Shown here: positions 923 through 17,932 of the stretch, one piece after another
How positions within the stretch are numbered: the stretch's first letter is position 1
How the letters are laid out: every line of letters starts with the position of its first letter
Source of the DNA: a virus
UHGV virus genome: UHGV-1599718
Direction: 5' to 3' (one strand)
DNA: 17,932 nt
Position numbers and translations under genes: made by a program
Notes under the pieces: model-generated
The model's input: the letters and a program-made list of their open reading frames with translations, nothing else
The model's database searches: none
What the model was told of the DNA's origin: nothing

Positions 923-942
923 TGTCGAGGCATCCTTATACA

Positions 943-968
943 TTTATATAAATATATAATTCTATATA
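943..968. promoter_or_regulatory. AT-rich operator/promoter-like repeat (TATATAA / TCTATA family), copy a
   Basis: tttatataaatatataattctatata lies directly upstream of the 641..922 gene; same motif family as copies at 2152, 5908, 5982, 6688 and 11052. Confidence 0.35.
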
Positions 969-999: not shown

Positions 1000-2067
1000 T
1001 CAGGCTTTCAATAGCGATTCTTTTAGATATCGGGCATCAGCCAGGGCGTTTGGAGTAATCTTGCGAACCCATGCATTACGGGTTGGACTCCACTTAAAGG
1101 CGCGTGATTTAAGCAGCGAACGAATGTTTGCCTCTGGTTTGCCAGGGAAATAAAACAGGATGCGGTTATCCTCTGGATCTATCTCCATAGAAAAGCCGTC
1201 GTATTCTTCGCGCTGTGCTCCTGTTACAGACTTGACCGATTCAAGCTCCTTAATACGGCTCTGTAGTCGTTTGATTTCGGCGTTATTGTTGCTCAGTGCG
1301 TATGAAGGGAATCCGATGCGCCCACAGAAATCTCCGGCCAGTAACTCTTTGGCTTCGCTTTCTGTAAACCTGAGATCGATTAATGCAGAAAGCTGCTGTA
1401 ATTGGTCTTTTTTGTATTTGCGAATGGCCTTATTTGCGGCCTTCATTTTGACGTGTGACTTCATGCAGCCTTGCAGCTTACGAAGCAACTTAAATAGCGC
1501 ATCAGGATCATCAGACGAAATTCCATTACGACCAACACCTGCGGCTTTGCTCTCGTAGTGTGATGCTTTACTTTCGCATTCAACAAACGCTTTTCTGAAT
1601 AACGCATCAGCTTTAGACAAACGGCGGCGATGGCCTTTCGCGCTATAATGGTCAACTAAAATCGGCTGGCCTAACGGGATCACATCCAACAGGTCATGCG
1701 CTCGCTTATGCGCTACCGCACCTTCTTTTCTGGCTTTTTCTGCACGAGCAATATATCGGGCAAGACGCGCGTTCTGGCGTTCCTGATAGGTGTTTACGTA
1801 ATCATCTCCGCGCTGCTGCTGTTCAAGCCATGCTTTGCGCAGATCTTCTGTTACGTCCACCAGCTCCGCAGGGATACAACCAGTTTGGGCTTCATAAGAG
1901 TAACCATCCTCATAGATACGCCCATCGTCTTCAACAAAGAAAAAGGTTTCGTGCTCATCGCTTTTGACCATACGACCATTAACATGGCGTAATAGGTAGC
2001 CAGTATCAGTGCTTAACAGGCTGTTAGGGTTGTTGATCCAGTCAGAAATAATTACTTGTTTATTCAT
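1000..2067 (-). CDS. hypothetical protein (355 aa), unknown function
   Basis: Long uninterrupted ORF starting ATG at 2067..2065; preceded by the conserved 89-bp leader. No family confidently recognised (DUF3560-like is a weak recollection only). Confidence 0.75.
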   Translation of the reverse strand: MNKQVIISDWINNPNSLLSTDTGYLLRHVNGRMVKSDEHETFFFVEDDGRIYEDGYSYEAQTGCIPAELVDVTEDLRKAWLEQQQRGDDYVNTYQERQNARLARYIARAEKARKEGAVAHKRAHDLLDVIPLGQPILVDHYSAKGHRRRLSKADALFRKAFVECESKASHYESKAAGVGRNGISSDDPDALFKLLRKLQGCMKSHVKMKAANKAIRKYKKDQLQQLSALIDLRFTESEAKELLAGDFCGRIGFPSYALSNNNAEIKRLQSRIKELESVKSVTGAQREEYDGFSMEIDPEDNRILFYFPGKPEANIRSLLKSRAFKWSPTRNAWVRKITPNALADARYLKESLLKA

Positions 2068-2073
2068 CAGATT

Positions 2074-2162
2074 TCTCCGGTTTAACCAGGGCGGGTATCG
2101 CTCGGTTTCGGTTATAACCTTAGGAAATTTTTTCCCACCTGTAAAGCACTTTTTATATAAAT
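2074..2162 (-). promoter_or_regulatory. conserved 89-bp promoter/5-prime leader element, copy A
   Basis: 89 bp differing at 2 positions from 10975..11063, in both cases immediately upstream of a minus-strand start codon; contains the palindrome GGTTATAACC. Confidence 0.55.
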
Positions 2163-2188
2163 CTATAATTATATATTTATAGATTTTC
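2152..2188. promoter_or_regulatory. AT-rich operator-like repeat, copy b (10-bp inverted repeat AAATCTATAA / TTATAGATTT)
   Basis: ttttatataaatctataattatatatttatagatttt; inverted halves aaatctataa and ttatagattt separated by 7 bp. Confidence 0.4.
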
Positions 2189-4606: not shown

Positions 4607-4642
4607 ACCACGATATGTGGTATTAAAACCACATATCGTGAG
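4607..4642. promoter_or_regulatory. tandem operators O1 (ACCACGATATGTGGT, 4607-4621) and O2 (ACCACATATCGTGAG, 4628-4642)
   Basis: Two 15-bp ACCAC-N5-GTGGT dyads with centres 21 bp apart, between divergent CI-like and Cro-like genes. On the minus strand they fall in the spacer and -10 region of a TTGAAA-N17-TTTAAT promoter candidate. Confidence 0.6.
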
Positions 4643-4709
4643 TTTTTCAATGGGCGAAACAAAAAATAACCTTCTATTTGTGGTCCACCTCTCGTCTTAC
4701 CATGTGAAA

Positions 4710-4724
4710 ACCACTAAATGTGGT
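4710..4724. promoter_or_regulatory. operator O3 (ACCACTAAATGTGGT) upstream of the CI-like gene
   Basis: Same dyad architecture, 38 bp upstream of the start at 4762; adjacent TATAAA at 4729-4735. Confidence 0.55.
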
Positions 4725-4761: not shown

Positions 4762-5418
4762 ATGAAAAGCAACGACGAGAACATCAAGAAAGAAATAGGT
4801 CTGCGCATTCAGACTCTACGGAAACAATCCGGCATGACTGCCGGAGATCTCCAGCAAGTCACTGGAATAGGCTTAAGCACCTTGCAGAACTATGAGGCCG
4901 GATTAAGACAACCATCTATACCTGCCATCAAGAAAATCGCGCACGCCCTGAAAGCATCAGCGCCTTATATCGCGTGCTTAACAGATAACCCGTTCCCACC
5001 CCAGAATACTAACGCTCCTGTTATTCCTGGGCTTGTAGCTATAAAAAATGACATAGCATCGCACGCCGGAGAAAAACCAGTGCTGGCGATAGAACAGGAG
5101 ATTCTACGAAGCAAGAACATCAACCCATCGTCTCTGTCAGTTCTCCAGAGCAACGATGAGTTAATGTCACCAACAATATCCCCTGGCTCCCAAGTCCTGA
5201 TTAATACAGACGATACAGAGATTCATGAGGGGATCTATGCCCTTGAAGACAGAAATGGCCTGGTTGTTTTGAGGCACTGTAGAGTCATACCGGGTGACAA
5301 TGCTGTTATGCTGTCAACCGAAAGGGATGCTGAAATGAACACTAAGCATCTGAATAACGAGGAATTTAAGCGTTATAAAGTTCTTGGCCGCGTAGTTAGT
5401 GTTGTCAACTGGTTATGA
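4762..5418 (+). CDS. CI-like prophage repressor (HTH_XRE N-terminal domain plus S24 LexA-like peptidase C-terminal domain, 218 aa)
   Basis: HTH segment IGLRIQTLRKQSGMTAGDLQQVTGIGLSTLQNYEAG. C-terminal region ELMSPTISPGSQVLINTDD ... GDNAVMLS ... KVLGRVVSV matches the Ser/Lys autopeptidase layout of LexA/CI proteins. Confidence 0.8.
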   Translation: MKSNDENIKKEIGLRIQTLRKQSGMTAGDLQQVTGIGLSTLQNYEAGLRQPSIPAIKKIAHALKASAPYIACLTDNPFPPQNTNAPVIPGLVAIKNDIASHAGEKPVLAIEQEILRSKNINPSSLSVLQSNDELMSPTISPGSQVLINTDDTEIHEGIYALEDRNGLVVLRHCRVIPGDNAVMLSTERDAEMNTKHLNNEEFKRYKVLGRVVSVVNWL

Positions 5419-5460
5419 TACACAGCACGGCGAAAGCCGTGCATTTCTACGCTCAAAAAA

Positions 5461-5475
5461 ACCACATTTTGTGGT
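5461..5475. promoter_or_regulatory. operator O4 (ACCACATTTTGTGGT) upstream of the 5511 gene
   Basis: Same dyad, immediately followed by TTGACA (5477-5482) and TATAAA (5494-5499), 36 bp before the ATG at 5511. Confidence 0.5.
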
Positions 5476-5510
5476 TTTGACAACATGTAAAAGTATAAAA
5501 GAGGCTACGC

Positions 5511-5890: not shown

Positions 5891-5908
5891 AGCGGGCTAA
5901 CGCCCGCT
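5891..5908 (+). terminator. stem-loop, candidate terminator after the 5511 gene
   Basis: agcgggc-taac-gcccgct directly after the stop at 5885, followed by an AT-rich run (ttatatgattat). Confidence 0.5.
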
Positions 5909-6013
5909 TATATGATTATAGATTTATATAATTATATAAAACGCTTTTCATCCGCCAAAAAGTTGGTTATGCTTATCTCATTCTATAAATATAGATTTAT
6001 AGAATTATATAAT
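5908..6013. promoter_or_regulatory. two AT-rich repeat clusters (copies c at 5908-5939 and d at 5982-6013) upstream of the ParA gene; candidate operator or centromere-like site
   Basis: ttatatgattatagatttatataattatataa and tctataaatatagatttatagaattatataat; TCTATA-AA-TATAGA is a perfect palindrome. Confidence 0.4.
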
Positions 6014-6035
6014 CAAACACATGGAGTCTCGACAA

Positions 6036-6689
6036 ATGACTATATCTGTAGGTATTTTCAACGGAAAAGGCGGCGTAACCAAATCAACCATTGCTCGTGC
6101 TTTAGCAGTTGCTTATGCAAAGGCTGGCTGGAATGTATGCCTGATCGATATGGATGTGCTTAACGGAACGGTAACGCGTTGGGTACAACGCAGAATGGCC
6201 AACAATATCGAACCTGCAATCGCGGCGCAGCCGTGCGGCACGCCATCACAAGTCCAGAAAATCATCGAATCAGAAGTATACGACCTGGTTATCGTTGATG
6301 GCGGTGCCTACGCATCTGAATCAGTACCGAAGCTATCTGAATTTCTGGATATGGTTATTTTGCCAACCAGATTCTCTACCGATGACCTGGAAACCACCGT
6401 TAACACTGCTCACGGTATCGTTAAAAAGGGTGTACCAATCAAGAAAATTTGCATGGTGTTTTCCGGCGCGGCTGAAAACGAAGCTGACTATATTGAAGCC
6501 CAAGAGTACCTGGCTAATACGCCATACTTTGTTGTTGATAAGTACATTCCCCACAAGCCAGCTCTGAGCAAAGCTCAGGATAAGGGCTTAAGCCTCATTG
6601 AGTGCTCATACGTTGCGCCACGCAAAAAGGCAGACGACGTTATTCAGGGGATTATCAACCAGCTTGAGGCTCTGACTACTGCCGCGTAA
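6036..6689 (+). CDS. parA: ParA/ParF-type partition ATPase (deviant Walker A)
   Basis: GKGGVTKST deviant Walker A at the N-terminus and DLVIVDGG Walker B-like motif. ATG 6036 has GGAG 9 nt upstream; the track start at 6021 lacks an RBS. Confidence 0.85.
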   Translation: MTISVGIFNGKGGVTKSTIARALAVAYAKAGWNVCLIDMDVLNGTVTRWVQRRMANNIEPAIAAQPCGTPSQVQKIIESEVYDLVIVDGGAYASESVPKLSEFLDMVILPTRFSTDDLETTVNTAHGIVKKGVPIKKICMVFSGAAENEADYIEAQEYLANTPYFVVDKYIPHKPALSKAQDKGLSLIECSYVAPRKKADDVIQGIINQLEALTTAA

Positions 6690-6720
6690 TATATAATTAT
6701 AGTTTTATAGATTTATATAA
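6688..6720. promoter_or_regulatory. AT-rich repeat copy e between the ParA gene and its partner
   Basis: aatatataattatagttttatagatttatataa starting at the ParA stop codon. Confidence 0.4.
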
Positions 6721-6732
6721 GAGGGGATACAC

Positions 6733-6981
6733 ATGGCCGCACCATCAAAACCACCAAAGAAGAACAGCAAAGGCGTACCGCCATCGATCGAACAACCGCA
6801 GGTTTTCGACCCGACTGAAACGCCAACCAGAACCAAATCAGGTGGGGCACAAATGGCGTTTAACGTCGACCCTGAATTTAAACGCGAGTACAAAACGTTC
6901 GCCAGCTCAATGGATATGTCATTGAAAGAAGTGCTGACAAAATCTTTTGAGTTACTCAAGTCTCAATACAACCAGAAGTAA
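6733..6981 (+). CDS. ribbon-helix-helix DNA-binding protein, ParG/Omega-like partition or regulatory partner (82 aa)
   Basis: Strong RBS AGAGGGG. Disordered basic N-terminus followed by an RHH-like C-terminus (AFNVDPEFKREYKTFASSMDMSLKEVLTKSFELL), immediately downstream of the ParA gene. Confidence 0.55.
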   Translation: MAAPSKPPKKNSKGVPPSIEQPQVFDPTETPTRTKSGGAQMAFNVDPEFKREYKTFASSMDMSLKEVLTKSFELLKSQYNQK

Positions 6982-7193: not shown

Positions 7194-7209
7194 ATTCAAC
7201 CATAAAAAA

Positions 7210-7225
7210 GGCCCCCGAAGGGGCC
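7210..7225. terminator. bidirectional intrinsic terminator
   Basis: ggcccc-cgaa-ggggcc flanked by an A-run on the left; on the minus strand the stem is followed by ttttttatgg. Confidence 0.5.
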
Positions 7226-7231
7226 TAATCG

Positions 7232-7354
7232 CTACTTGCTGCTAATGTTTATCGTCACATTCAGAGCGTTATCAGTAATCTTCCAACCCTCCCCATGTGG
7301 CGTAAACAAAGCTCCAGTAACAACGATAAAAATACACATACAGTATTTTTTCAT
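7232..7354 (-). CDS. possible small hydrophobic peptide (40 aa); speculative
   Basis: Internal ATG of ORF 7232..7414 gives MKKYCMCIFIVVTGALFTPHGEGWKITDNALNVTINISSK; ends at the minus-strand face of the 7210-7225 terminator. Weak RBS. Confidence 0.2.
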   Translation of the reverse strand: MKKYCMCIFIVVTGALFTPHGEGWKITDNALNVTINISSK

Positions 7355-7752
7355 TGTATGGCCCTTACAGGCCGTTTCACGGCATCCCCACCGACGAAAA
7401 CAACGCGAGAGCAAGCACGGCTGCTTGTGCTTGCATGTACGGCAACGGAGAATCCTCCCCTAAAGTCGGTGCCCGGGTGCGAATCGGCGGGAAGGTCCAC
7501 AGGTATTTTACGATTATTTTAAGATTAGTAATAGGAAAGAAATTAAACGAAAAAACTCGTTTATTTTCACAAAATCAGTAACCTACCCACAATCTGTGAG
7601 TTTGCAGGCACAACAAGAACCACAATTTTTTGAAGCATAATAGTGGACTATTATTACCTTTTGGGTAAAATTAACTTGCTGCTTGTGCTTGCGTGGTTGT
7701 TTATACAACAACGTAATGCTGAAAGGACCGCGAATCCGATCAGCACGAAAGA

Positions 7753-7779: not shown

Positions 7780-7925
7780 TTTCTGCCTACCAATAAACCC
7801 ACGCTATGTGGTTGTCTCTGTTAAAATCCCGCCGTATTGACATGAATGCGCCATTGGTGGACACTTTCCGAGCCGTAGCAAAATCTACGGTCGGGATTGG
7901 AACCCCGATAATCATCATGGCGCAT

Positions 7926-7946
7926 ACCGCGTTAGCGGTTTTTTTA
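7926..7946 (+). terminator. intrinsic terminator candidate in a non-coding region
   Basis: accgc-gtta-gcggt followed by TTTTTTT. Confidence 0.5.
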
Positions 7947-8110
7947 TGCGTAAAGCACTGCTACACCCAAATTATGGTGGGGCGTGCGGGGGAGTCGTAA
8001 GACTCGCCGGATTCCATGGTGACCGGTAGTTCCAACCCTGTACGTCTCACCACCCAATGATTGGAACCAGACGGTGGTGAGTATCCTTAACCTTTAAGGG
8101 AACTATCACC

Positions 8111-8302
8111 ATGACAAACTTACCCCATGACTATTACGTCAACCTCGTAAAGATCCTTCTCAAGAAAGCCTCATACGCCGATAAATTACGCTTGGCTGAA
8201 ATCATCGAGCGCGAAGCTATGCGCATCGCCAGCAACGATAACGCTGTTTCTGACGCAAAAATCTCCCTCGTAACCAAAGTAGTTATGGGAGGTGCAAAAT
8301 GA
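8111..8302 (+). CDS. small hypothetical phage protein (63 aa)
   Basis: ORF whose TGA overlaps the ATG of the downstream Rha-like gene (ATGA); weak RBS. Confidence 0.45.
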   Translation: MTNLPHDYYVNLVKILLKKASYADKLRLAEIIEREAMRIASNDNAVSDAKISLVTKVVMGGAK

Positions 8303-9441
8303 AAACGCTTCCGACCGTTAACACCCTACAGCCTATCCTGCATAACCAGATCCCCGTTATCACTAGTGAACTTCTGGCGCAGTTATACGGAACAAAAATC
8401 AAAAACATTTCTGATAACTTTCTGAACAACTCGACGCGATTCGTAGCCGGAAAGCATTACTTTAAAATTGAAAAAAACGAATTACGCGAGTTCAAGAACA
8501 GACCCGAAACAATCGGGTTAGTTGGTAAAAATGCCCGCTCCCTAATTCTCTGGACCGAACGCGGGGCTGCACGTCACGCTAAAATGCTCGAAACCGATCA
8601 GGCGTGGGATGTATTCGAACGGCTGGAAGACTGCTATTTCAACCAGAACGCGCAAACGGCCGCGACCGTAACCGTCTCGCCAAACAATGCTCGTGAGGTT
8701 GTCGATACGCTCAACGCCAAACCGATGTTTTACATTAAGGTGTGCAATAACGAGCCACTCACAACCTCAGCCGATGTTGCCCAGGCATTCAGCACCACAA
8801 ACAATTCCATCGTTATGGCCATCGATGCGTTACGCATTCCTCGCACAGCTGCGGCACGTCATTTCTTTAAAGAGCAACGACCGCTGGAAGGAAGCGACCG
8901 CGAAATAACAATCTATCGCATGACAAAAGATGGATTTACCTTGCTCATGGAAAGTATCGACGGTCCAGGCGTGAAAGATATCAAGCTGGCCTACATTGAA
9001 GCCTTTAACGCTATCAGCAGCGTGTTAAAAACACAGTACGAGCGTGATCTGGCTAAACGACTGTACCAGGAAAAAACGATTATCCGCGCGGCAACAGAGC
9101 ATAATCGGCTATTAACGGAACCGAACTACAGGAAGGAACTAATCAAGGAGTTTGACAAGGCAACAGGGAAAACCAAAGCGGCGCTAAATCTGCCAGCAAT
9201 GACTCAGGAAAATGTGATATCAGCCTTACTTCTTGATCTGCTCAGAAACGCCAGAGCACTTATCAGCTTTGACGAAAACCTGAATCCTCAGCTCAAGCTA
9301 CTACCACCGACAGGCAAAGTAGTCGACCAGGCTGATCACAACAGCATACTCAGCGTTCTGGATGCAAACCTGCCAGCCAGGACACTACAGGATCTGATAA
9401 AAACATGTGCTGATAAGCTGGCACAGAAAAGCAGACCATAA
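8299..9441 (+). CDS. phage regulatory protein Rha family, antirepressor-like, with N-terminal ORF6N/KilA-N-like domain (380 aa)
   Basis: GGAGG RBS. N-terminal region (IPVITSELLAQLYGTKIKNISDNF ... SLILWTERGAARHAKM) resembles the ORF6N domain. Central region (PLTTSADVAQAFSTTNNSIVMAIDAL ... ITIYRMTKDGFTLLMESIDGPGVKDIKLAYIEAFNAI) resembles the Rha domain. Confidence 0.75.
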   Translation: MKTLPTVNTLQPILHNQIPVITSELLAQLYGTKIKNISDNFLNNSTRFVAGKHYFKIEKNELREFKNRPETIGLVGKNARSLILWTERGAARHAKMLETDQAWDVFERLEDCYFNQNAQTAATVTVSPNNAREVVDTLNAKPMFYIKVCNNEPLTTSADVAQAFSTTNNSIVMAIDALRIPRTAAARHFFKEQRPLEGSDREITIYRMTKDGFTLLMESIDGPGVKDIKLAYIEAFNAISSVLKTQYERDLAKRLYQEKTIIRAATEHNRLLTEPNYRKELIKEFDKATGKTKAALNLPAMTQENVISALLLDLLRNARALISFDENLNPQLKLLPPTGKVVDQADHNSILSVLDANLPARTLQDLIKTCADKLAQKSRP

Positions 9442-9637: not shown

Positions 9638-10180
9638 AATAATTCCACCATAACCGATAACCACCCTTCAGACACAACCCCCCCTCCCCCCATACAGGGT
9701 GCCCTTTACCGGAGTTCCGGCCCCTTCTCAAAAGCATCAAAAAAAGCTCGAGATCGAGTACCGGAACTCATGCCACCAGATAGCTCCACATCGTTTCCAA
9801 TGCTTCGCCGCCGTGTGCGCCCTGTGGCCCACAATCATGCCATTGGTCGTCTGATATACCTTCTTCTGCTCATAGAGCACAGGCGAGTTGTCGCACTCCT
9901 GCCTTTCTCAGACTCGACTTAGTTTAGATCGCTGTTCCTGGCTTGCGTCAGCACACTTTCCCCTTGTACGCATACCCGCGCGCCACTCCGCCCAAAAACA
10001 CCGAACCCAACGAAGTGGCAAAGACAACGACGCGAGCGTGAGTCTGAAATGGGCACCAGTAAAAAAGGGGTTGCAGGCGCAAAAAGATTTGATTATCTTT
10101 AGACGCAAGAAAGCCGCCCCAATCAAGAGGTGTCTTTTTAAATCCAGCCTACCAAGCAAGATTTAAATTTCAGACTGAAA

Positions 10181-10198
10181 ACCGCCCGGCAAGGCGGT
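10181..10198. terminator. bidirectional intrinsic terminator
   Basis: accgcc-cggcaa-ggcggt with an A-run before and TTTTT after; downstream of the minus-strand HTH gene and of whatever is transcribed rightward from the 9700-10180 region. Confidence 0.5.
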
Positions 10199-10250
10199 TT
10201 TTGTCTTTCTGGCGCTTACATTACACCACCATAAAACGATCCGTAAAGGA

Positions 10251-10523
10251 TCATTTGTTCCCTTGTTCCAATTCTGCCGACACTTTAACCTTTTCCCATA
10301 CAAGGGTTTGCAGCCTTAACAGAATCGCGTCTTTATCAAGGTGTGAAAGATCCTTCACCATATCGTCAAACGACAGAACGCGAATGGCCATCTCAATGAC
10401 CCTCGGCGGCTCCCCCTTCTCATATCGCTTATATGTAGCCAACGATATCCCAAATTCTTCGGCGGCTCGCTCCTGCGTCCAGTTCACCCCACGACGCCAT
10501 AATTTCAATTCATAACCCGTCAT
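10251..10523 (-). CDS. small HTH (XRE/Cro-like) DNA-binding protein (90 aa)
   Basis: ATG at 10523 preceded by GAGGAGGA at 5-nt spacing (the track start at 10556 is TTG). HTH-like segment WTQERAAEEFGISLATYKRYEKG. Confidence 0.6.
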   Translation of the reverse strand: MTGYELKLWRRGVNWTQERAAEEFGISLATYKRYEKGEPPRVIEMAIRVLSFDDMVKDLSHLDKDAILLRLQTLVWEKVKVSAELEQGNK

Positions 10524-10552
10524 AGCATCCTCCTCGCACAATATTAACACTC

Positions 10553-10577
10553 GCAAAGTGTCAAAATGACACTTTGC
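10553..10577. promoter_or_regulatory. perfect 11-bp inverted repeat GCAAAGTGTCA-AAA-TGACACTTTGC
   Basis: Sits between the 126-aa gene stop (10587) and the HTH gene start (10523); a 15-nt half-copy (tcaaaatgacacttt) recurs at 2223-2237 at the 3-prime end of the Q-like gene. Confidence 0.45.
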
Positions 10578-10586
10578 GCATTGTGT

Positions 10587-10967
10587 TTACTTAACGAGGA
10601 ATAAAAATGGTTTATTGTTCGGCGGTGTAATCGCGGCTGGCTCGCTTTTGCTCATGCGATCAGTGTACCAGGCCAGCTCCTTGTCAAAGTAAGCCTGATT
10701 AAAATAGGCAATGAATGTAGTTTCAAATCCATAACGGCCGCTAATACGCAGCATCTGATTGCCGTTCTCTGTTTCCAGATATACCTGGGCACGTTCCTGA
10801 TTCTCCTTCAGCCAGGTTAAAGCCTCATCGCATGAGGACACACGATACTCATCATCGTAGCAGTCATCGATGCGGCTTGAGGAAGAACGGCAAATCACGC
10901 CAACAGAACCAGCCAGGATAGTTTGAATTTTAAGGAAAGCGTTTTTGCGGATTTTAATCATGCTCAT
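10587..10967 (-). CDS. hypothetical protein (126 aa), unknown function
   Basis: ORF with ATG at 10967 immediately downstream of the second copy of the conserved leader. Confidence 0.65.
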   Translation of the reverse strand: MSMIKIRKNAFLKIQTILAGSVGVICRSSSSRIDDCYDDEYRVSSCDEALTWLKENQERAQVYLETENGNQMLRISGRYGFETTFIAYFNQAYFDKELAWYTDRMSKSEPAAITPPNNKPFLFLVK

Positions 10968-10974
10968 CGGGTTA

Positions 10975-11063
10975 TCTCCGGTTTAACCAGGGCGGGTATC
11001 GCTCGGTTTCGGGTATAACCTTAGGAAATTTCTTCCCACCTGTAAAGCACTTTTTATATAAAT
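10975..11063 (-). promoter_or_regulatory. conserved 89-bp promoter/5-prime leader element, copy B
   Basis: Differs from 2074..2162 at 2 positions, and the similarity continues about 13 bp into the adjacent AT-rich repeat; the flanking coding sequences are unrelated. Confidence 0.55.
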
Positions 11064-11086
11064 ATATAATTATATAATTCTATGAG
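11052..11086. promoter_or_regulatory. AT-rich operator-like repeat, copy f
   Basis: ttttatataaatatataattatataattctatgag. Confidence 0.4.
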
Positions 11087-11095
11087 CACAAAAAA

Positions 11096-11115
11096 GCCCC
11101 TTTGCAACAGGGGCT
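11096..11115 (-). terminator. intrinsic terminator of the toxin-antitoxin operon
   Basis: agcccct-ttgcaac-aggggct; on the minus strand the stem is followed by TTTTTTGTG, 16 nt after the antitoxin stop. Confidence 0.55.
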
Positions 11116-11130
11116 TATCATTCGTTCTGA

Positions 11131-11430
11131 TCAGATGTTAAACGCTATTCGTTTTCCTGTGGGAAGCTCAACATCCAGGCTTAATTTGCCTCCCATAGCT
11201 TCAACGTAACGCTTTAATGTCGCCAGCTTTAAATCATTTCCGCGCTGCTCCAGCTTTGTTACTGCTGGCTGGCTTATACCCATCGCCTCAGCAACCTGTT
11301 TTTGTGATAACTGGAGTTCTTCACGCATCATCTGCAAGCCGACCTCAAGAATCATCTCATCTGCCATTTCTTTAATTCGCGCCTGGCTTTCCGGTGAACG
11401 GCTGGCAATCGCCTCATCTAATGTTCTCAT
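11131..11430 (-). CDS. HTH (XRE-type) antitoxin, HigA-like addiction-module antidote protein (99 aa)
   Basis: HTH segment LQLSQKQVAEAMGISQPAVTKLEQRGNDLKLATLKRYVEAMGGKL; start overlaps the toxin stop (TAATG). Confidence 0.7.
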   Translation of the reverse strand: MRTLDEAIASRSPESQARIKEMADEMILEVGLQMMREELQLSQKQVAEAMGISQPAVTKLEQRGNDLKLATLKRYVEAMGGKLSLDVELPTGKRIAFNI

Positions 11431-11777
11431 TACTTGCTCTCCAGTGTGTTCAGATGTGCTGCAAACTCATCCTCAGCTATACGCACCAGTTTTTCATAAA
11501 ACCGCTTATCGTTACTTTTGTCTCCTGCACAAAGAACGATGGCCCGGCGAATCGGATCGAACGCATAAAAGGCTCTTATCGGACGGCCAGAAAACTGAAC
11601 GCGAAGCTCTTTCATATTTTTGTACCGAGAACCTTTTACGGTATCGGCATATGGCCTGGGTAACTCAGGTCCGTAAACCTGTAGCTTTTTCAAATCAGCC
11701 AAAACCTTTTCCTGAAGAGCGTCTTCTTGCTCATTTAGCCAGTCGTCAAATCGCTGGCTAAAAAGTACCGTCCACAT
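11430..11777 (-). CDS. RelE/ParE-superfamily toxin, HigB / Gp49-like addiction-module killer protein (115 aa)
   Basis: ATG at 11777 with AGGA RBS (the track start at 11783 is TTG). Motifs WLNE..., RAFYAFDPIRRAIVLCAGDK, FYEKLVRIAEDEF and the toxin-first gene order match HigB-type killer proteins. Confidence 0.7.
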   Translation of the reverse strand: MWTVLFSQRFDDWLNEQEDALQEKVLADLKKLQVYGPELPRPYADTVKGSRYKNMKELRVQFSGRPIRAFYAFDPIRRAIVLCAGDKSNDKRFYEKLVRIAEDEFAAHLNTLESK

Positions 11778-11786
11778 GCTCAATCC

Positions 11787-12285: not shown

Positions 12286-12388
12286 AATGTTAGCGCCAGT
12301 GATATAAGACGGTAATTCACCATTTGGATTGTCCGCTCCACCCAACATGTTGTTTCCTTAAGGTTCCCACACCAGAAAGGACATCAAC

Positions 12389-14358
<1,970 letters not shown>

Positions 14359-14443
14359 CGAAAGTATTTTAGCGGGCATGAAAATGGCAAATAACGGTTA
14401 AAAATCGTGGCGTTGACAATAACAAACCTCATATTTGCATGTT

Positions 14444-14731: not shown

Positions 14732-14761
14732 AACCATCTCCATTTATTACATCTACGATGG

Positions 14762-14802
14762 TAGGAAATCTTTTCCTATGTGGCAATAGAAATTTACCAC
14801 AT
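14762..14802. promoter_or_regulatory. operator-like palindromes upstream of the 14444..14731 gene
   Basis: Perfect palindrome TAGGAAA-tct-TTTCCTA (14762-14778) and dyad ATGTGG-N13-CCACAT (14778-14802); TAGGAAATC recurs at 14832-14840. Confidence 0.35.
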
Positions 14803-16542: not shown

Positions 16543-17097
16543 TCAATGATTCCCAGCCGGAAACCTGCGGTAAAGCGTGGATAAGGTAACATCGAAGATA
16601 ATCGCTATCCGCTTACGTGAAACACCATTCGCAATAAGCCTTCCGATCTGTTCCCATTGCTCTGGTGCCAATTTTGAGCGGCGTCCTCCTATCCTGCCGT
16701 TAGCCCTTGCCACCGCCAATCCTGCACGCGTTCTTTCAATCATATTTTCCCGCTCCATCTCTGCGACTGCACTCAGCATCGTGTAGGCAAAGCGGCCAAT
16801 TGAAGTGCTAATTTTTATCCCTTCCGTAATCGAAATAAACTCAATGTTGTTTGATAAAAAATAGTTTAGTAAATCAACAAGATGAATCAGAGAACGCCCC
16901 ATTCGGTCCAGCTTCCAGACAATAACCGTATCGCCCGGCCGTAACACCTTCAGTAGCTTATCAAGTCCTGGTCGTTTTGATTTAGCACCGGATATTTTAT
17001 CTTCAAAAATCCGGTCACATCCTGAACTCCTGAGCGCCTCCAATTGTAATTCCAAATTCTGGTCAAAAGTTGACACCCTCGCATAACCATATTGCAT
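16543..17097 (-). CDS. serine recombinase, DNA invertase of the Hin/Gin/Cin/Pin family (184 aa)
   Basis: N-terminus MQYGYARVSTFDQNLELQ with catalytic-Ser context; VWKLDRMGRS; C-terminal HTH (RKRIAIIFDVTLSTLYRR). Near-collinear by eye with e14 Pin. Confidence 0.9.
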   Translation of the reverse strand: MQYGYARVSTFDQNLELQLEALRSSGCDRIFEDKISGAKSKRPGLDKLLKVLRPGDTVIVWKLDRMGRSLIHLVDLLNYFLSNNIEFISITEGIKISTSIGRFAYTMLSAVAEMERENMIERTRAGLAVARANGRIGGRRSKLAPEQWEQIGRLIANGVSRKRIAIIFDVTLSTLYRRFPAGNH

Positions 17098-17107
17098 ACT
17101 TTCTAAA

Positions 17108-17932
17108 CCGCGATTGTTGCTAAAAGCGGGAAAAAATATCGTTCAGACGACACAGAGGCAATTCGCAAAAACCTCGGTTTACAGGAAACGGTAAATAAGG
17201 CTGGTAACGCCGTTCAAAAGACAGGTGATACCTTGTCCGGCGGACTTACTTTTGAAAACGACTCAATCCTTGCCTGGATTCGGAATACTGACTGGGCAAA
17301 GATTGGATTTAAAAATGATGCCGACAGCGATACTGATTCATACATGTGGTTTGAAACAGGCGACAACGGAAATGAATATTTCAAATGGAGAAGCCGCCAG
17401 AGCACCACAACAAAAGACCTGATGAATCTTAAATGGGATGCTTTGTCTGTCCTTGTTAAAGCCCTTTTCAGCAGTGAAGTAAAAATATCGACAGTCAATG
17501 CACTGAGGATATTTAATTCATCTTTTGGTGCCATTTTTCGCCGTTCTGAAGAATGCCTGCATATCATCCCGACACGAGAGAATGAGGGAGAAAATGGTGA
17601 TATAGGGCCACTACGCCCCTTTACGCTTAATCTCAGAACTGGTCGGATAAGCATGGGGCATGGTCTTGATGTTACAGGGGATATATTTGCAAACCGTTTT
17701 GCAATTAACAGTAGTACCGGCATGTGGATTCATATGCGTGACCAGAATGTTATTTTGGGACGCAATGCGGTATCCACCGATGGTGCACAGGCATTACTTC
17801 GTCAGGACCATGCTGATCGCAAATTTATGATTGGTGGACTGGGAAATAAGCAATTTGGCATCTACATGATTAATAACTCAAGGACAGCCAATGGCACCGA
17901 TGGTCAGGCGTACATGGATAATAACGGGAACT
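17108..17932 (+). CDS. tail-fibre C-terminal variable segment (no start codon of its own; 3-prime end beyond window); probably the silent alternative copy inside an invertible segment
   Basis: Open frame from the stop at 17105 to the window end, absent from the ORF track because it has no in-window stop. Translation ... NRFAINSSTGMWIHMRDQNVILGRNAVSTDGAQALLRQDHADRKFMIGGLGNKQFGIYMINNSRTANGTDGQAYMDNNGN resembles phage tail-fibre C-termini. Confidence 0.6.
17162..17187. other. gix/hix-like recombination crossover site
   Basis: TTCGCAAAAACC-TC-GGTTTACAGGAA: the right half equals the Mu gix half-site and the left half matches the TTATCAAAAACC consensus at 9-10 of 12 positions. It lies 65 bp from the invertase start, inside the tail-fibre reading frame. 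Confidence 0.65.

Follow-up and report, generated by a model that had tools for sequence, protein, structure and literature searches.

The 17,932-nt stretch of the virus genome UHGV-1599718 analyzed here (hereafter the window; coordinates refer to it unless stated otherwise) contains, in front of a minus-strand gene for a 126-amino-acid (aa) protein, a non-coding leader, leader B, that recurs almost unchanged in front of a different gene, as leader A. We consider leader B likely to be a KorC-type repressible promoter-leader, present in three near-identical copies on a P2-like phage-plasmid of ~48 kb. The module would then belong to a known regulatory kind, the KorC-type kil-kor promoter, present in an unexpected host, with an altered operator specificity and with an AT-rich array replacing the KorA operator. 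We read the leader in this way because of its operator dyads, the KorC homologue encoded on the same replicon, the alignment of its layout with that of IncP-1 plasmids, and a covarying hairpin.

Three copies of a leader on a P2-like phage-plasmid

The repeat had been noticed in a sequence-only reading of the window, and it is real: positions 10975-11082 (copy B) and 2074-2181 (copy A) are 95% identical over 108 nt, and a gapped match spans 119 nt at 93%. The identity ends a few bases before both start codons (2067 and 10967), thereby excluding coding sequence from the duplication, and at the other end inside the AT-rich repeat. Both copies are located upstream of minus-strand genes, one encoding a DUF3560 protein and the other the 126-aa protein (Table 1). 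The two copies first counted are both genuine, but the plasmid total is three, the third (copy C) lying outside the window in front of a gene for an 89-aa protein, after a MT-A70 methylase gene. All complete members of the family carry three copies; in PLSDB, almost all of the family plasmids do so (191 places on 66 plasmids), and each of the three phage records likewise has three leader places. A 17-nt core of the leader occurs 3 times on the plasmid whereas 0 occurrences are expected, which excludes chance as the source of the repeat. The palindrome GGTTATAACC, pointed out earlier for copy A only, reflects a one-base polymorphism located between -10 and hairpin, is not kept among the copies, and is irrelevant to the module.

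Megablast matched the window at 98-99% identity to a family of circular E. coli plasmids of ~48 kb, including pHN68-3 (NZ_CP141847.1) and the 48.5-kb plasmid of ATCC 25922, and also to the Yersinia phages vB_YpM_39, 41, and 44 (49 kb each). Head, tail, and lysis genes of P2-like type are found on the full record, which further codes for a RepA of the IncFII type, a small ParA, higBA, and a CI-like XRE/S24 repressor. The presence of P2-like phage genes and of plasmid RepA and ParA on one record indicates that the replicon is a phage-plasmid, i.e. a P2-like phage living as a plasmid. The family ranges over E. coli, Salmonella, Klebsiella, Citrobacter, and Yersinia-infecting phages.

A predicted promoter with a putative operator in its spacer, and a KorC homologue

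Read along the minus strand, leader B consists of an AT-rich array, a predicted sigma-70 promoter, a 5' hairpin, and a Shine-Dalgarno (SD) sequence. The putative operator dyad takes up the spacer of the promoter, its final TA forming the start of the -10, and ~10 nt separate the -10 from the hairpin. In the Salmonella copy of the leader, TTTACA-17-TATGGT was called as a promoter by a consensus scan. Two other motifs were considered and are absent from the leader sequence: the P2 Ogr-type late-promoter motif TGT-N12-ACA and a LexA box.

Searching the whole 48.7-kb plasmid for TAGGAAANNNTTTCCTA with at most one mismatch revealed only four sites, namely the three leaders and one perfect dyad in the spacer of the promoter of a korC-like gene; these four promoters form the operator-sharing set of the replicon. 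Promoter, dyad, and korC-like gene are kept together in Salmonella, Citrobacter, and Enterobacter relatives. The 95-aa product of this gene aligns by BLASTP with KorC of R772 (51% identity over 80 aligned residues, covering residues 11-85 of that 85-aa protein; E value 4e-23), and it is 41% identical to the KorC of another E. coli IncP plasmid. The gene for its most distant homologue in a large protein collection (P0032, 52% identity) lies where IncP-1 plasmids have korC, the gene order being ssb-trfA-klcA-klcB-[P0032]-kleE-korA-incC-korB, and tblastn against PLSDB matched features annotated as "transcriptional repressor KorC". From these sequence similarities we conclude that the 95-aa protein is a KorC homologue, predicted to bind all four operators and to repress transcription from them. 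The possibility raised earlier that the leader contains a regulator-binding site is supported by the 17-bp dyad and by its presumed cognate repressor, the KorC homologue of the same replicon.

An opposite mode of control would be that of a phage middle or late promoter, with an activator rather than a repressor acting on the AT-rich arrays or on the dyad. Copies A and C do lie inside long co-directional phage operons, with C preceding the packaging genes, a weak -10 would suit an activator, and the arrays span about -40 to -75, a region from which activators and UP elements work. Nevertheless, a dyad between -35 and -10 occupies the position of a repressor site, and its IncP-1 homologue is a proven one (PMC7314908, PMC7414963). 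The -35 is also good (5/6 matches), and arrays are present where no promoter is expected. We regard activation as very unlikely.

Homology with the klcA and kleA promoters of IncP-1 plasmids

In IncP-1 plasmids, KorC acts as a global repressor of klcA, kleA, and kleC (PMC7314908). At annotated klcA and kleA promoters, taken from R772, other IncP-1 clades, and one Burkholderia plasmid, the dyads read TAGGGCA-N3-TGCCCTA, TAGGACA-N3-TGTCCTA, and TAGGACG-N3-CGTCCTA, and their last TA starts the -10, as in the phage-plasmid leader. The klcA and kleA promoter-leaders of R772 are near-identical to each other and align with the phage-plasmid element from AAAGTGCTTGACAGG via the operator, the hairpin, and ACCGGAGA to the ATG. 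The distance between the start of the operator and the start codon was 72-77 nt in 29 out of 29 distinct sequences collected.

Besides the homologous repressor, the two systems thus have in common a 17-bp operator of 7-N3-7 design with TAGG/CCTA ends, overlapping the -10; a -35 context AAAGTGCTT(G/T)ACAGG, which reads AAAGTGCTTGACAGG in IncP-1beta and AAAGTGCTTTACAGG in leader B; a homologous 5' hairpin with the ACCGGAGA SD region at the same spacing; and several near-identical copies of the module per replicon in front of unrelated small genes.

There are also differences. IncP-1 plasmids are conjugative, whereas the module here resides on a tailed, P2-like phage-plasmid whose RepA is of IncFII type, and the operator core is GGCA/TGCC in the former and GAAA/TTTC in the latter. 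The klcA, kleA, and kleC promoters are co-repressed by KorA, whose operator O_A (GTTTAGCTAAAC) lies at the -35; the phage-plasmid has neither O_A nor O_B, and the place abutting the -35 is taken by the proximal TTATATAA unit of the AT-rich array. KorA co-repression is a feature of IncP-1 promoters and not of KorC regulation as such. In IncP-1 plasmids korC is found at the end of the klcA operon, whereas the korC-like gene of the phage-plasmid has its own operator-bearing promoter, and the downstream genes are klcA and kleA in the one case and those for the DUF3560, 126-aa, and 89-aa proteins in the other.

A further parallel is offered by the IncU plasmid RA3, where KorC is the main global regulator and coordinates promoters for replication, stability, and transfer (PMC7414963). 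As described there, one small repressor governs several dispersed promoters of different modules, as may be the case here; the RA3 korC promoter, however, is weak and constitutive (PMC7414963), whereas the phage-plasmid one carries an operator.

A conserved hairpin in the predicted 5' untranslated region

The 5' untranslated region (UTR) of the leader contains a hairpin of 8 base pairs. In a MAFFT alignment of 20 sequences it was 92.5% paired, and 6 of the 8 pairs had changed on both sides. Among 500 shuffles of this alignment none reached the observed value on four of five measures, and 5 did so on the remaining one, the count of further pair types; sliding one partner by 1-3 columns lowered the pairing to 19-49%. 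RNAalifold independently predicted the same helix. A covariance model built from the alignment (R1) matched the window only at 2065-2137 and 10965-11038, with 73-75 bits. A pattern scan of one genome per species retrieved 116 stretches, mostly from proteobacterial plasmid contigs and often as two copies ~2.2 kb apart. In a larger alignment of 136 model-aligned matches (A6; 90 distinct leaders), pairing rose to 95.3%, with double changes in 7 of 8 pairs and 21 further pair types; this alignment was fitted to the model's own structure. G.U pairs are frequent and the bulge is asymmetric, which indicates an RNA on the transcribed strand and not a protein-binding DNA palindrome. Judging from this comparative evidence, the leader hairpin is a conserved RNA structure, and the earlier suggestion of a structured RNA was well founded.

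Neither leaders A and B nor the IncP-1 klcA and kleA leaders had a match in Rfam 15 (for A and B at E values up to 1), and in the literature, as far as it was covered, we found no description of the hairpin or of KorC in phage-plasmids; a paper on the Yersinia phage HQ103 contained nothing that bears on them. Folding of single leader sequences was unremarkable (z scores of -1.5 to -2.2), and the hairpin was revealed by comparative analysis only.

The 5'-terminal stem-loops of some bacterial mRNAs, such as that of the ompA 5' UTR, stabilize the transcript. If transcription starts ~7-8 nt after the -10, as predicted, the leader hairpin would be only 2-3 nt from the 5' end and followed by a single-stranded SD, which is consistent with a similar stabilizing role. 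Unlike the ompA type, it keeps a bulge and an A.C position that recurs, and these features may point to a more specific recognition.

A rival reading is that control is mainly post-transcriptional, with the hairpin and ACCGGAGA forming a cis-regulatory RNA that is bound by a protein or small RNA (sRNA) or that occludes the ribosome-binding site, and with the dyad secondary. The covariation and the strand-specific G.U pairs agree with this view, as do the absence of a covering Rfam family, a conservation of the UTR across genera that equals that of the operator, and a possible alternative pairing GGU/ACC beside the SD. It is rather unlikely all the same, given the unremarkable folding energies, an invariant SD flank that leaves any occluding helix without covariation, the small size of the hairpin and its location at the extreme 5' end, as in mRNA-stabilizing hairpins, and the complete repressor/operator pair that already explains regulation.

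Several observations weigh against a KorC-regulated promoter and its hairpin as we describe them. No promoter was called by the consensus scan in window 10100-11200; the -10 of leader B, TAAGGT, matches the consensus at 3 of 6 positions, and its operator carries two mismatches to TAGGAAA-N3-TTTCCTA. With an operator core of GAAA here and GGCA in IncP-1, the specificity of the 95-aa protein is assumed, and its binding and repression, like the transcript start, are predictions. KorA and KorB operators do not exceed chance on the plasmid, so that the full kil-kor regulon is not present. As for the hairpin, its stems are invariant within the phage-plasmid family, and the covariation arises from the comparison with plasmid leaders.

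AT-rich arrays and their candidate binders

Arrays of the period-8 unit TTATATAA occur six times in the window and eight times on the whole plasmid; they are confined to intergenic DNA, and the half with the structural genes has none. Tandem Repeats Finder (TRF) detected them at both window leaders and at three sites flanking parA. Their positions are kept in the Salmonella relative. In the Enterobacter relative (L033) an array precedes a different promoter, without leader B, which indicates that the array is a separable module.

In type Ib partition systems, small ribbon-helix-helix proteins bind centromeres and act as repressors, as do ParG at parH of TP228 and omega of pSM19035. The region around parA resembles these systems in that short-repeat arrays, with 8-bp units here, flank a small parA gene that is followed by a gene for a protein of ~80 aa with a disordered N-terminal tail. 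Arrays related to those at parA also stand at other promoters, as do the heptads of omega. The 82-aa protein encoded after parA is predicted to consist of a disordered basic N-tail, a strand-like QMAFNV segment, and two C-terminal helices (strand-helix-helix), and as the best candidate binder of the arrays we give it about an even chance. The unit TTATATAA, the array between parA and the small gene, and the absence of detectable sequence or fold similarity set it apart from ParG and omega. Indeed, searches for a ribbon-helix-helix or ParG relationship in Pfam (E values up to 10), in Foldseek, and by PDB profile search gave nothing significant, and a comparison with a ParG sequence by hhalign returned a probability of 1%. 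These results do not support the assignment. A second candidate binder is the product of the MarR/FaeA-like gene behind the array at 936-967.

Conservation of the leader and exchange of downstream genes

Within a genome, the leader paralogues are 92-99% identical, while orthologous copies of E. coli and Salmonella are 83-89% identical and the adjacent genes 55-78% (DNA), so that the non-coding part is more conserved than its surroundings. The sequence-only reading had named two findings that would refute it, a larger duplication reaching into coding sequence and a lack of non-coding conservation in homologous copies, and neither is observed. Lineage-specific changes are common to all three copies. 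This pattern indicates that the copies are under purifying selection and are homogenized by recombination.

The leader had been proposed to be a reusable module driving interchangeable genes and possibly marking an exchange hotspot. Its reuse is apparent from the three genes that it fronts on the plasmid and from the ~25 unrelated protein clusters, some of them chance matches, that it fronts across all retrieved elements. These clusters include KlcA antirestriction proteins, KleA (PF17383, which bears the name "KorC regulated protein A" in Pfam), RadC-like JAB proteins, ParB_N proteins, and DUF3560 proteins. Interchangeability holds in spirit across mobile elements, but it and an exchange hotspot are at most weakly supported within the phage-plasmid family, where the genes are nearly fixed: members from E. 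coli, Yersinia phages, IMG/VR, Salmonella, Klebsiella, and Citrobacter have a common set of three genes behind the three copies. Few exceptions were seen. In one contig (L013, ~1914) a different 73-aa gene, with only the first ~8 codons in common, lies behind copy C. L033 lacks copy B together with the 126-aa gene, and the segment upstream of copy B is variable (L009). An IMG/VR element (L007, ~4426) has a hybrid leader before the copy-C gene, its SD-ATG spacer being of A type; this and the replacement in L013 point to recombination within or beside the leader.

Many draft-assembly and IMG/VR contigs (L024, L025, L027, L017, L018, and L004) begin or end inside the leader, as this three-copy repeat breaks short-read assemblies. 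In six Paraburkholderia, Caballeronia, and Trinickia contigs (L039, L044, L053, L064, L065, and L075), two KorC-type modules ~160 bp apart face away from each other, one of them driving a gene for a ~705-aa protein with a weak ParB_N match; copy C of the phage-plasmid also leads to ParB/Srx genes.

The concerted evolution of the copies, the hybrid leader, the gene replacement behind copy C, the loss of copy B with its gene, the frequent assembly breaks, and the variety of downstream clusters could also mean that the copies are kept alike chiefly as recombination substrates or module boundaries for the exchange of genes, with regulation secondary. We hold this to be unlikely, since nearly all family members, from five genera, have the same genes behind the copies and since the conservation is structured: the -35, the dyad, the stem pairs, and the SD are kept whereas loops and spacers vary, which selection for mere homology would not predict.

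Genes behind the leaders and borders of the leader B unit

The 126-aa protein is confined to the phage-plasmid family, where its most divergent full-length member is 63% identical. No match was found in Pfam, NCBIfam, or PADLOC, and in PHROGs only a family of unknown function. Its AlphaFold2 model shows a confident alpha/beta fold (mean confidence score pLDDT 81), for which no significant structural neighbour was found. An early role, triggered by entry into the cell, may be proposed for this gene because the genes behind the module elsewhere resemble the establishment or leading-region set of plasmids.

The unit had been described as a 126-aa gene plus a small helix-turn-helix (HTH) gene, bounded by a terminator upstream and a palindrome downstream. 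The upstream terminator is confirmed. At the downstream end there is a terminator-like hairpin, but the strongest palindrome, a perfect 12-bp inverted repeat, stands between the 126-aa and HTH genes and is probably the operator of the HTH protein itself. Because of this palindrome, and because the HTH gene is present in L033 without leader B, this gene probably forms an autoregulated unit of its own, reached by read-through as well. A 13-nt half-site of the palindrome (AGTGTCATTTTGA) recurs at 2223-2237 on the minus strand, ~40 nt upstream of the leader A array; the Salmonella relative does not keep it there. A phage moron would have its own promoter, flanking terminators, and a patchy presence among related phages. 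A promoter and flanking terminators are present here; absence, of leader B with the 126-aa gene, was seen only in the distant relative L033, and the unit is otherwise constant across the family. Behind leader A, the C-terminal half of the DUF3560 protein (residues 173-351) matches the primase-annotated phrog_19458 with an E value of 2e-37.

Table 1 Leaders, operators, arrays, and associated genes in the window.
Feature	Position	Strand	Remarks
Leader B, whole module	about 10968-11085	-	
Leader B array, four 8-bp AT-rich units, consensus TTATATAA	11054..11085	-	just upstream of -35; TRF period 8, 3.8 copies
Leader B, AAAAAGTGC		-	next after the array in minus-strand order
Leader B predicted -35, TTTACA	11041..11046	-	within AAAGTGCTTTACAGG
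Leader B putative KorC-type operator, TGGGAAG-AAA-TTTCCTA	11022..11038		17-bp dyad
Leader B predicted -10, TAAGGT	11018..11023	-	17 nt from -35; TATGGT in other copies
Leader B 5'-UTR hairpin, AACC-G(A)GCG-auacc-CGC(C)C-u-GGUU	10985..11008	-	covariation and covariance-model match
Leader B, AAACCGGAGA		-	between the hairpin and the 7 nt before ATG
Leader B SD, GGAGA	10975..10979	-	inside conserved ACCGGAGA, 7 nt before ATG
126-aa gene	10587..10967	-	phrog_8090; behind leader B
Perfect 12-bp inverted repeat, CGCAAAGTGTCA-AAA-TGACACTTTGCG	10552..10578		just upstream of the HTH gene
HTH gene, 90 aa	10251..10523	-	XRE/HTH_3, phrog_6962, weak RstR-like match
GC-rich terminator-like hairpin	10176..10203		flanked by runs of T/A; behind the HTH gene
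Intrinsic terminator	11094..11116	-	after higBA (11131..11783); insulates leader B from upstream transcription
Leader A	2065..2184	-	array 2153-2184, -35 2140-2145, operator 2121-2137, -10 2117-2122, hairpin 2084-2107, SD 2074-2078, ATG 2065-2067
DUF3560 gene, 355 aa	1000..2067	-	behind leader A
Promoter of korC-like gene, TTGCCA-17-TACCAT	14758..14786	-	called promoter, directly upstream of the gene
Fourth operator, perfect TAGGAAA-AGA-TTTCCTA	14762-14778		in the spacer of the korC-like promoter
korC-like gene, 95 aa	14444..14731	-	phrog_8351; HTH-like middle; candidate repressor of the four operators
TTATATAA array between DUF3560 gene and next gene	936..967		
MarR/FaeA-like gene, 100 aa	641..943		beyond the array at 936-967
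TTATATAA arrays upstream of parA	5908-5939 and 5973-6012		TRF: 5908-5939 and 5990-6013
parA	6021..6689		small (about 220 aa)
TTATATAA array between parA and 82-aa gene	6689..6720		TRF: 6697-6717
82-aa gene after parA	6733..6981	+	candidate ParG-like binder of the arrays

Other features of the replicon

Window 12287-14419 is an IS21 element (istA 12389..13561, istB 13558..14358). pHN68-3 has no IS21 at this place, which corresponds to its positions 28111-28114, at the start of an 87-aa gene (28113..28376) 3' of the korC-like gene and 5' of higBA; the flanks overlap by 4 bp, which resembles a target duplication. A P1-type immunity-I region lies on the plus strand at 7859-8057, with Rfam matches to C4 antisense RNA (7970-8057, 84 bits), isrK (7872-7945), and the c4 a1/b1 target (7859-7911). 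It is followed by a small open reading frame (8111..8302) and by one of 380 aa (8299..9441) that is ORF6N/Rha-type antirepressor-like, the Pfam families being taken from relatives. An sRNA of the ryfA family gives a full-length Rfam match at 7204-7500 on the minus strand (142 bits; gathering score 80).

Dyads resembling ACCACA-N4-TGTGGT (e.g. AAAACCACATTTTGTGGTTTT) are located at 4618-4724 and 5456-5485, on either side of the CI-like XRE/S24 gene (4762..5418). They are probably the operators of this repressor and differ from both the KorC-type dyads and the AT-rich arrays. The last part of the window (16543-17932) is an invertible host-range segment, in which a Hin/Pin-type invertase gene (16543..17097, minus strand) adjoins tail-fibre segments sharing 87-95% identity with their counterparts in Mu, P1/P7, SfMu, and D108.

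Proposed mechanism and implications

In the mechanism that we propose, each leader would be a sigma-70 promoter (TTTACA-17 nt-TAAGGT in leader B) whose spacer and first -10 bases hold the palindromic operator T(G/A)GGAAA-N3-TTTCCTA, and all four operator-bearing promoters would be shut off once the KorC homologue has accumulated. The conserved 5' hairpin and a strong ribosome-binding site at a fixed distance would give a stable, well-translated mRNA, and the four AT-rich units upstream of the -35, which belong to the eight-array family centred on parA, would bind a second regulator, most likely the small partner protein of ParA. On RP4, klcA, kleA, and kleC show the strongest induction upon entry into a new cell, with klcA going up 120- to 224-fold (PMC7314908). 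By analogy, the three operons of the phage-plasmid (DUF3560; 126-aa; 89-aa leading to ParB/Srx) would be expressed in a burst in a repressor-free cell and be silent in the established plasmid-prophage. Such a burst on entry into a naive cell is probable on these grounds, although copy C leads towards packaging genes and fits it less obviously, a point against it.

A bolder extension, possible although doubtful, would be that the phage-plasmid took over an entire plasmid circuit of "zygotic induction". A KorC-operated burst would then deliver establishment or anti-defence functions, that of the 126-aa protein included, the partition protein would be a global co-repressor acting through the eight arrays, which might themselves be scattered centromeres, and the hairpin would be a previously undescribed cis-regulatory RNA with a specific partner.

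In summary, the leader ties a widespread and poorly annotated family of phage-plasmids to the well-studied regulatory logic of plasmids, and it allows a likely regulator and regulon to be named for genes that are now labelled "hypothetical". The genes predicted to be expressed first on entry into a naive cell become candidate anti-defence or "kil" genes. The KorC operator travels with the hairpin and the SD as one portable unit among IncP-1-like plasmids, Burkholderia-type plasmids, and a phage, and the small covarying 5' hairpin, absent from Rfam, is now directly testable.

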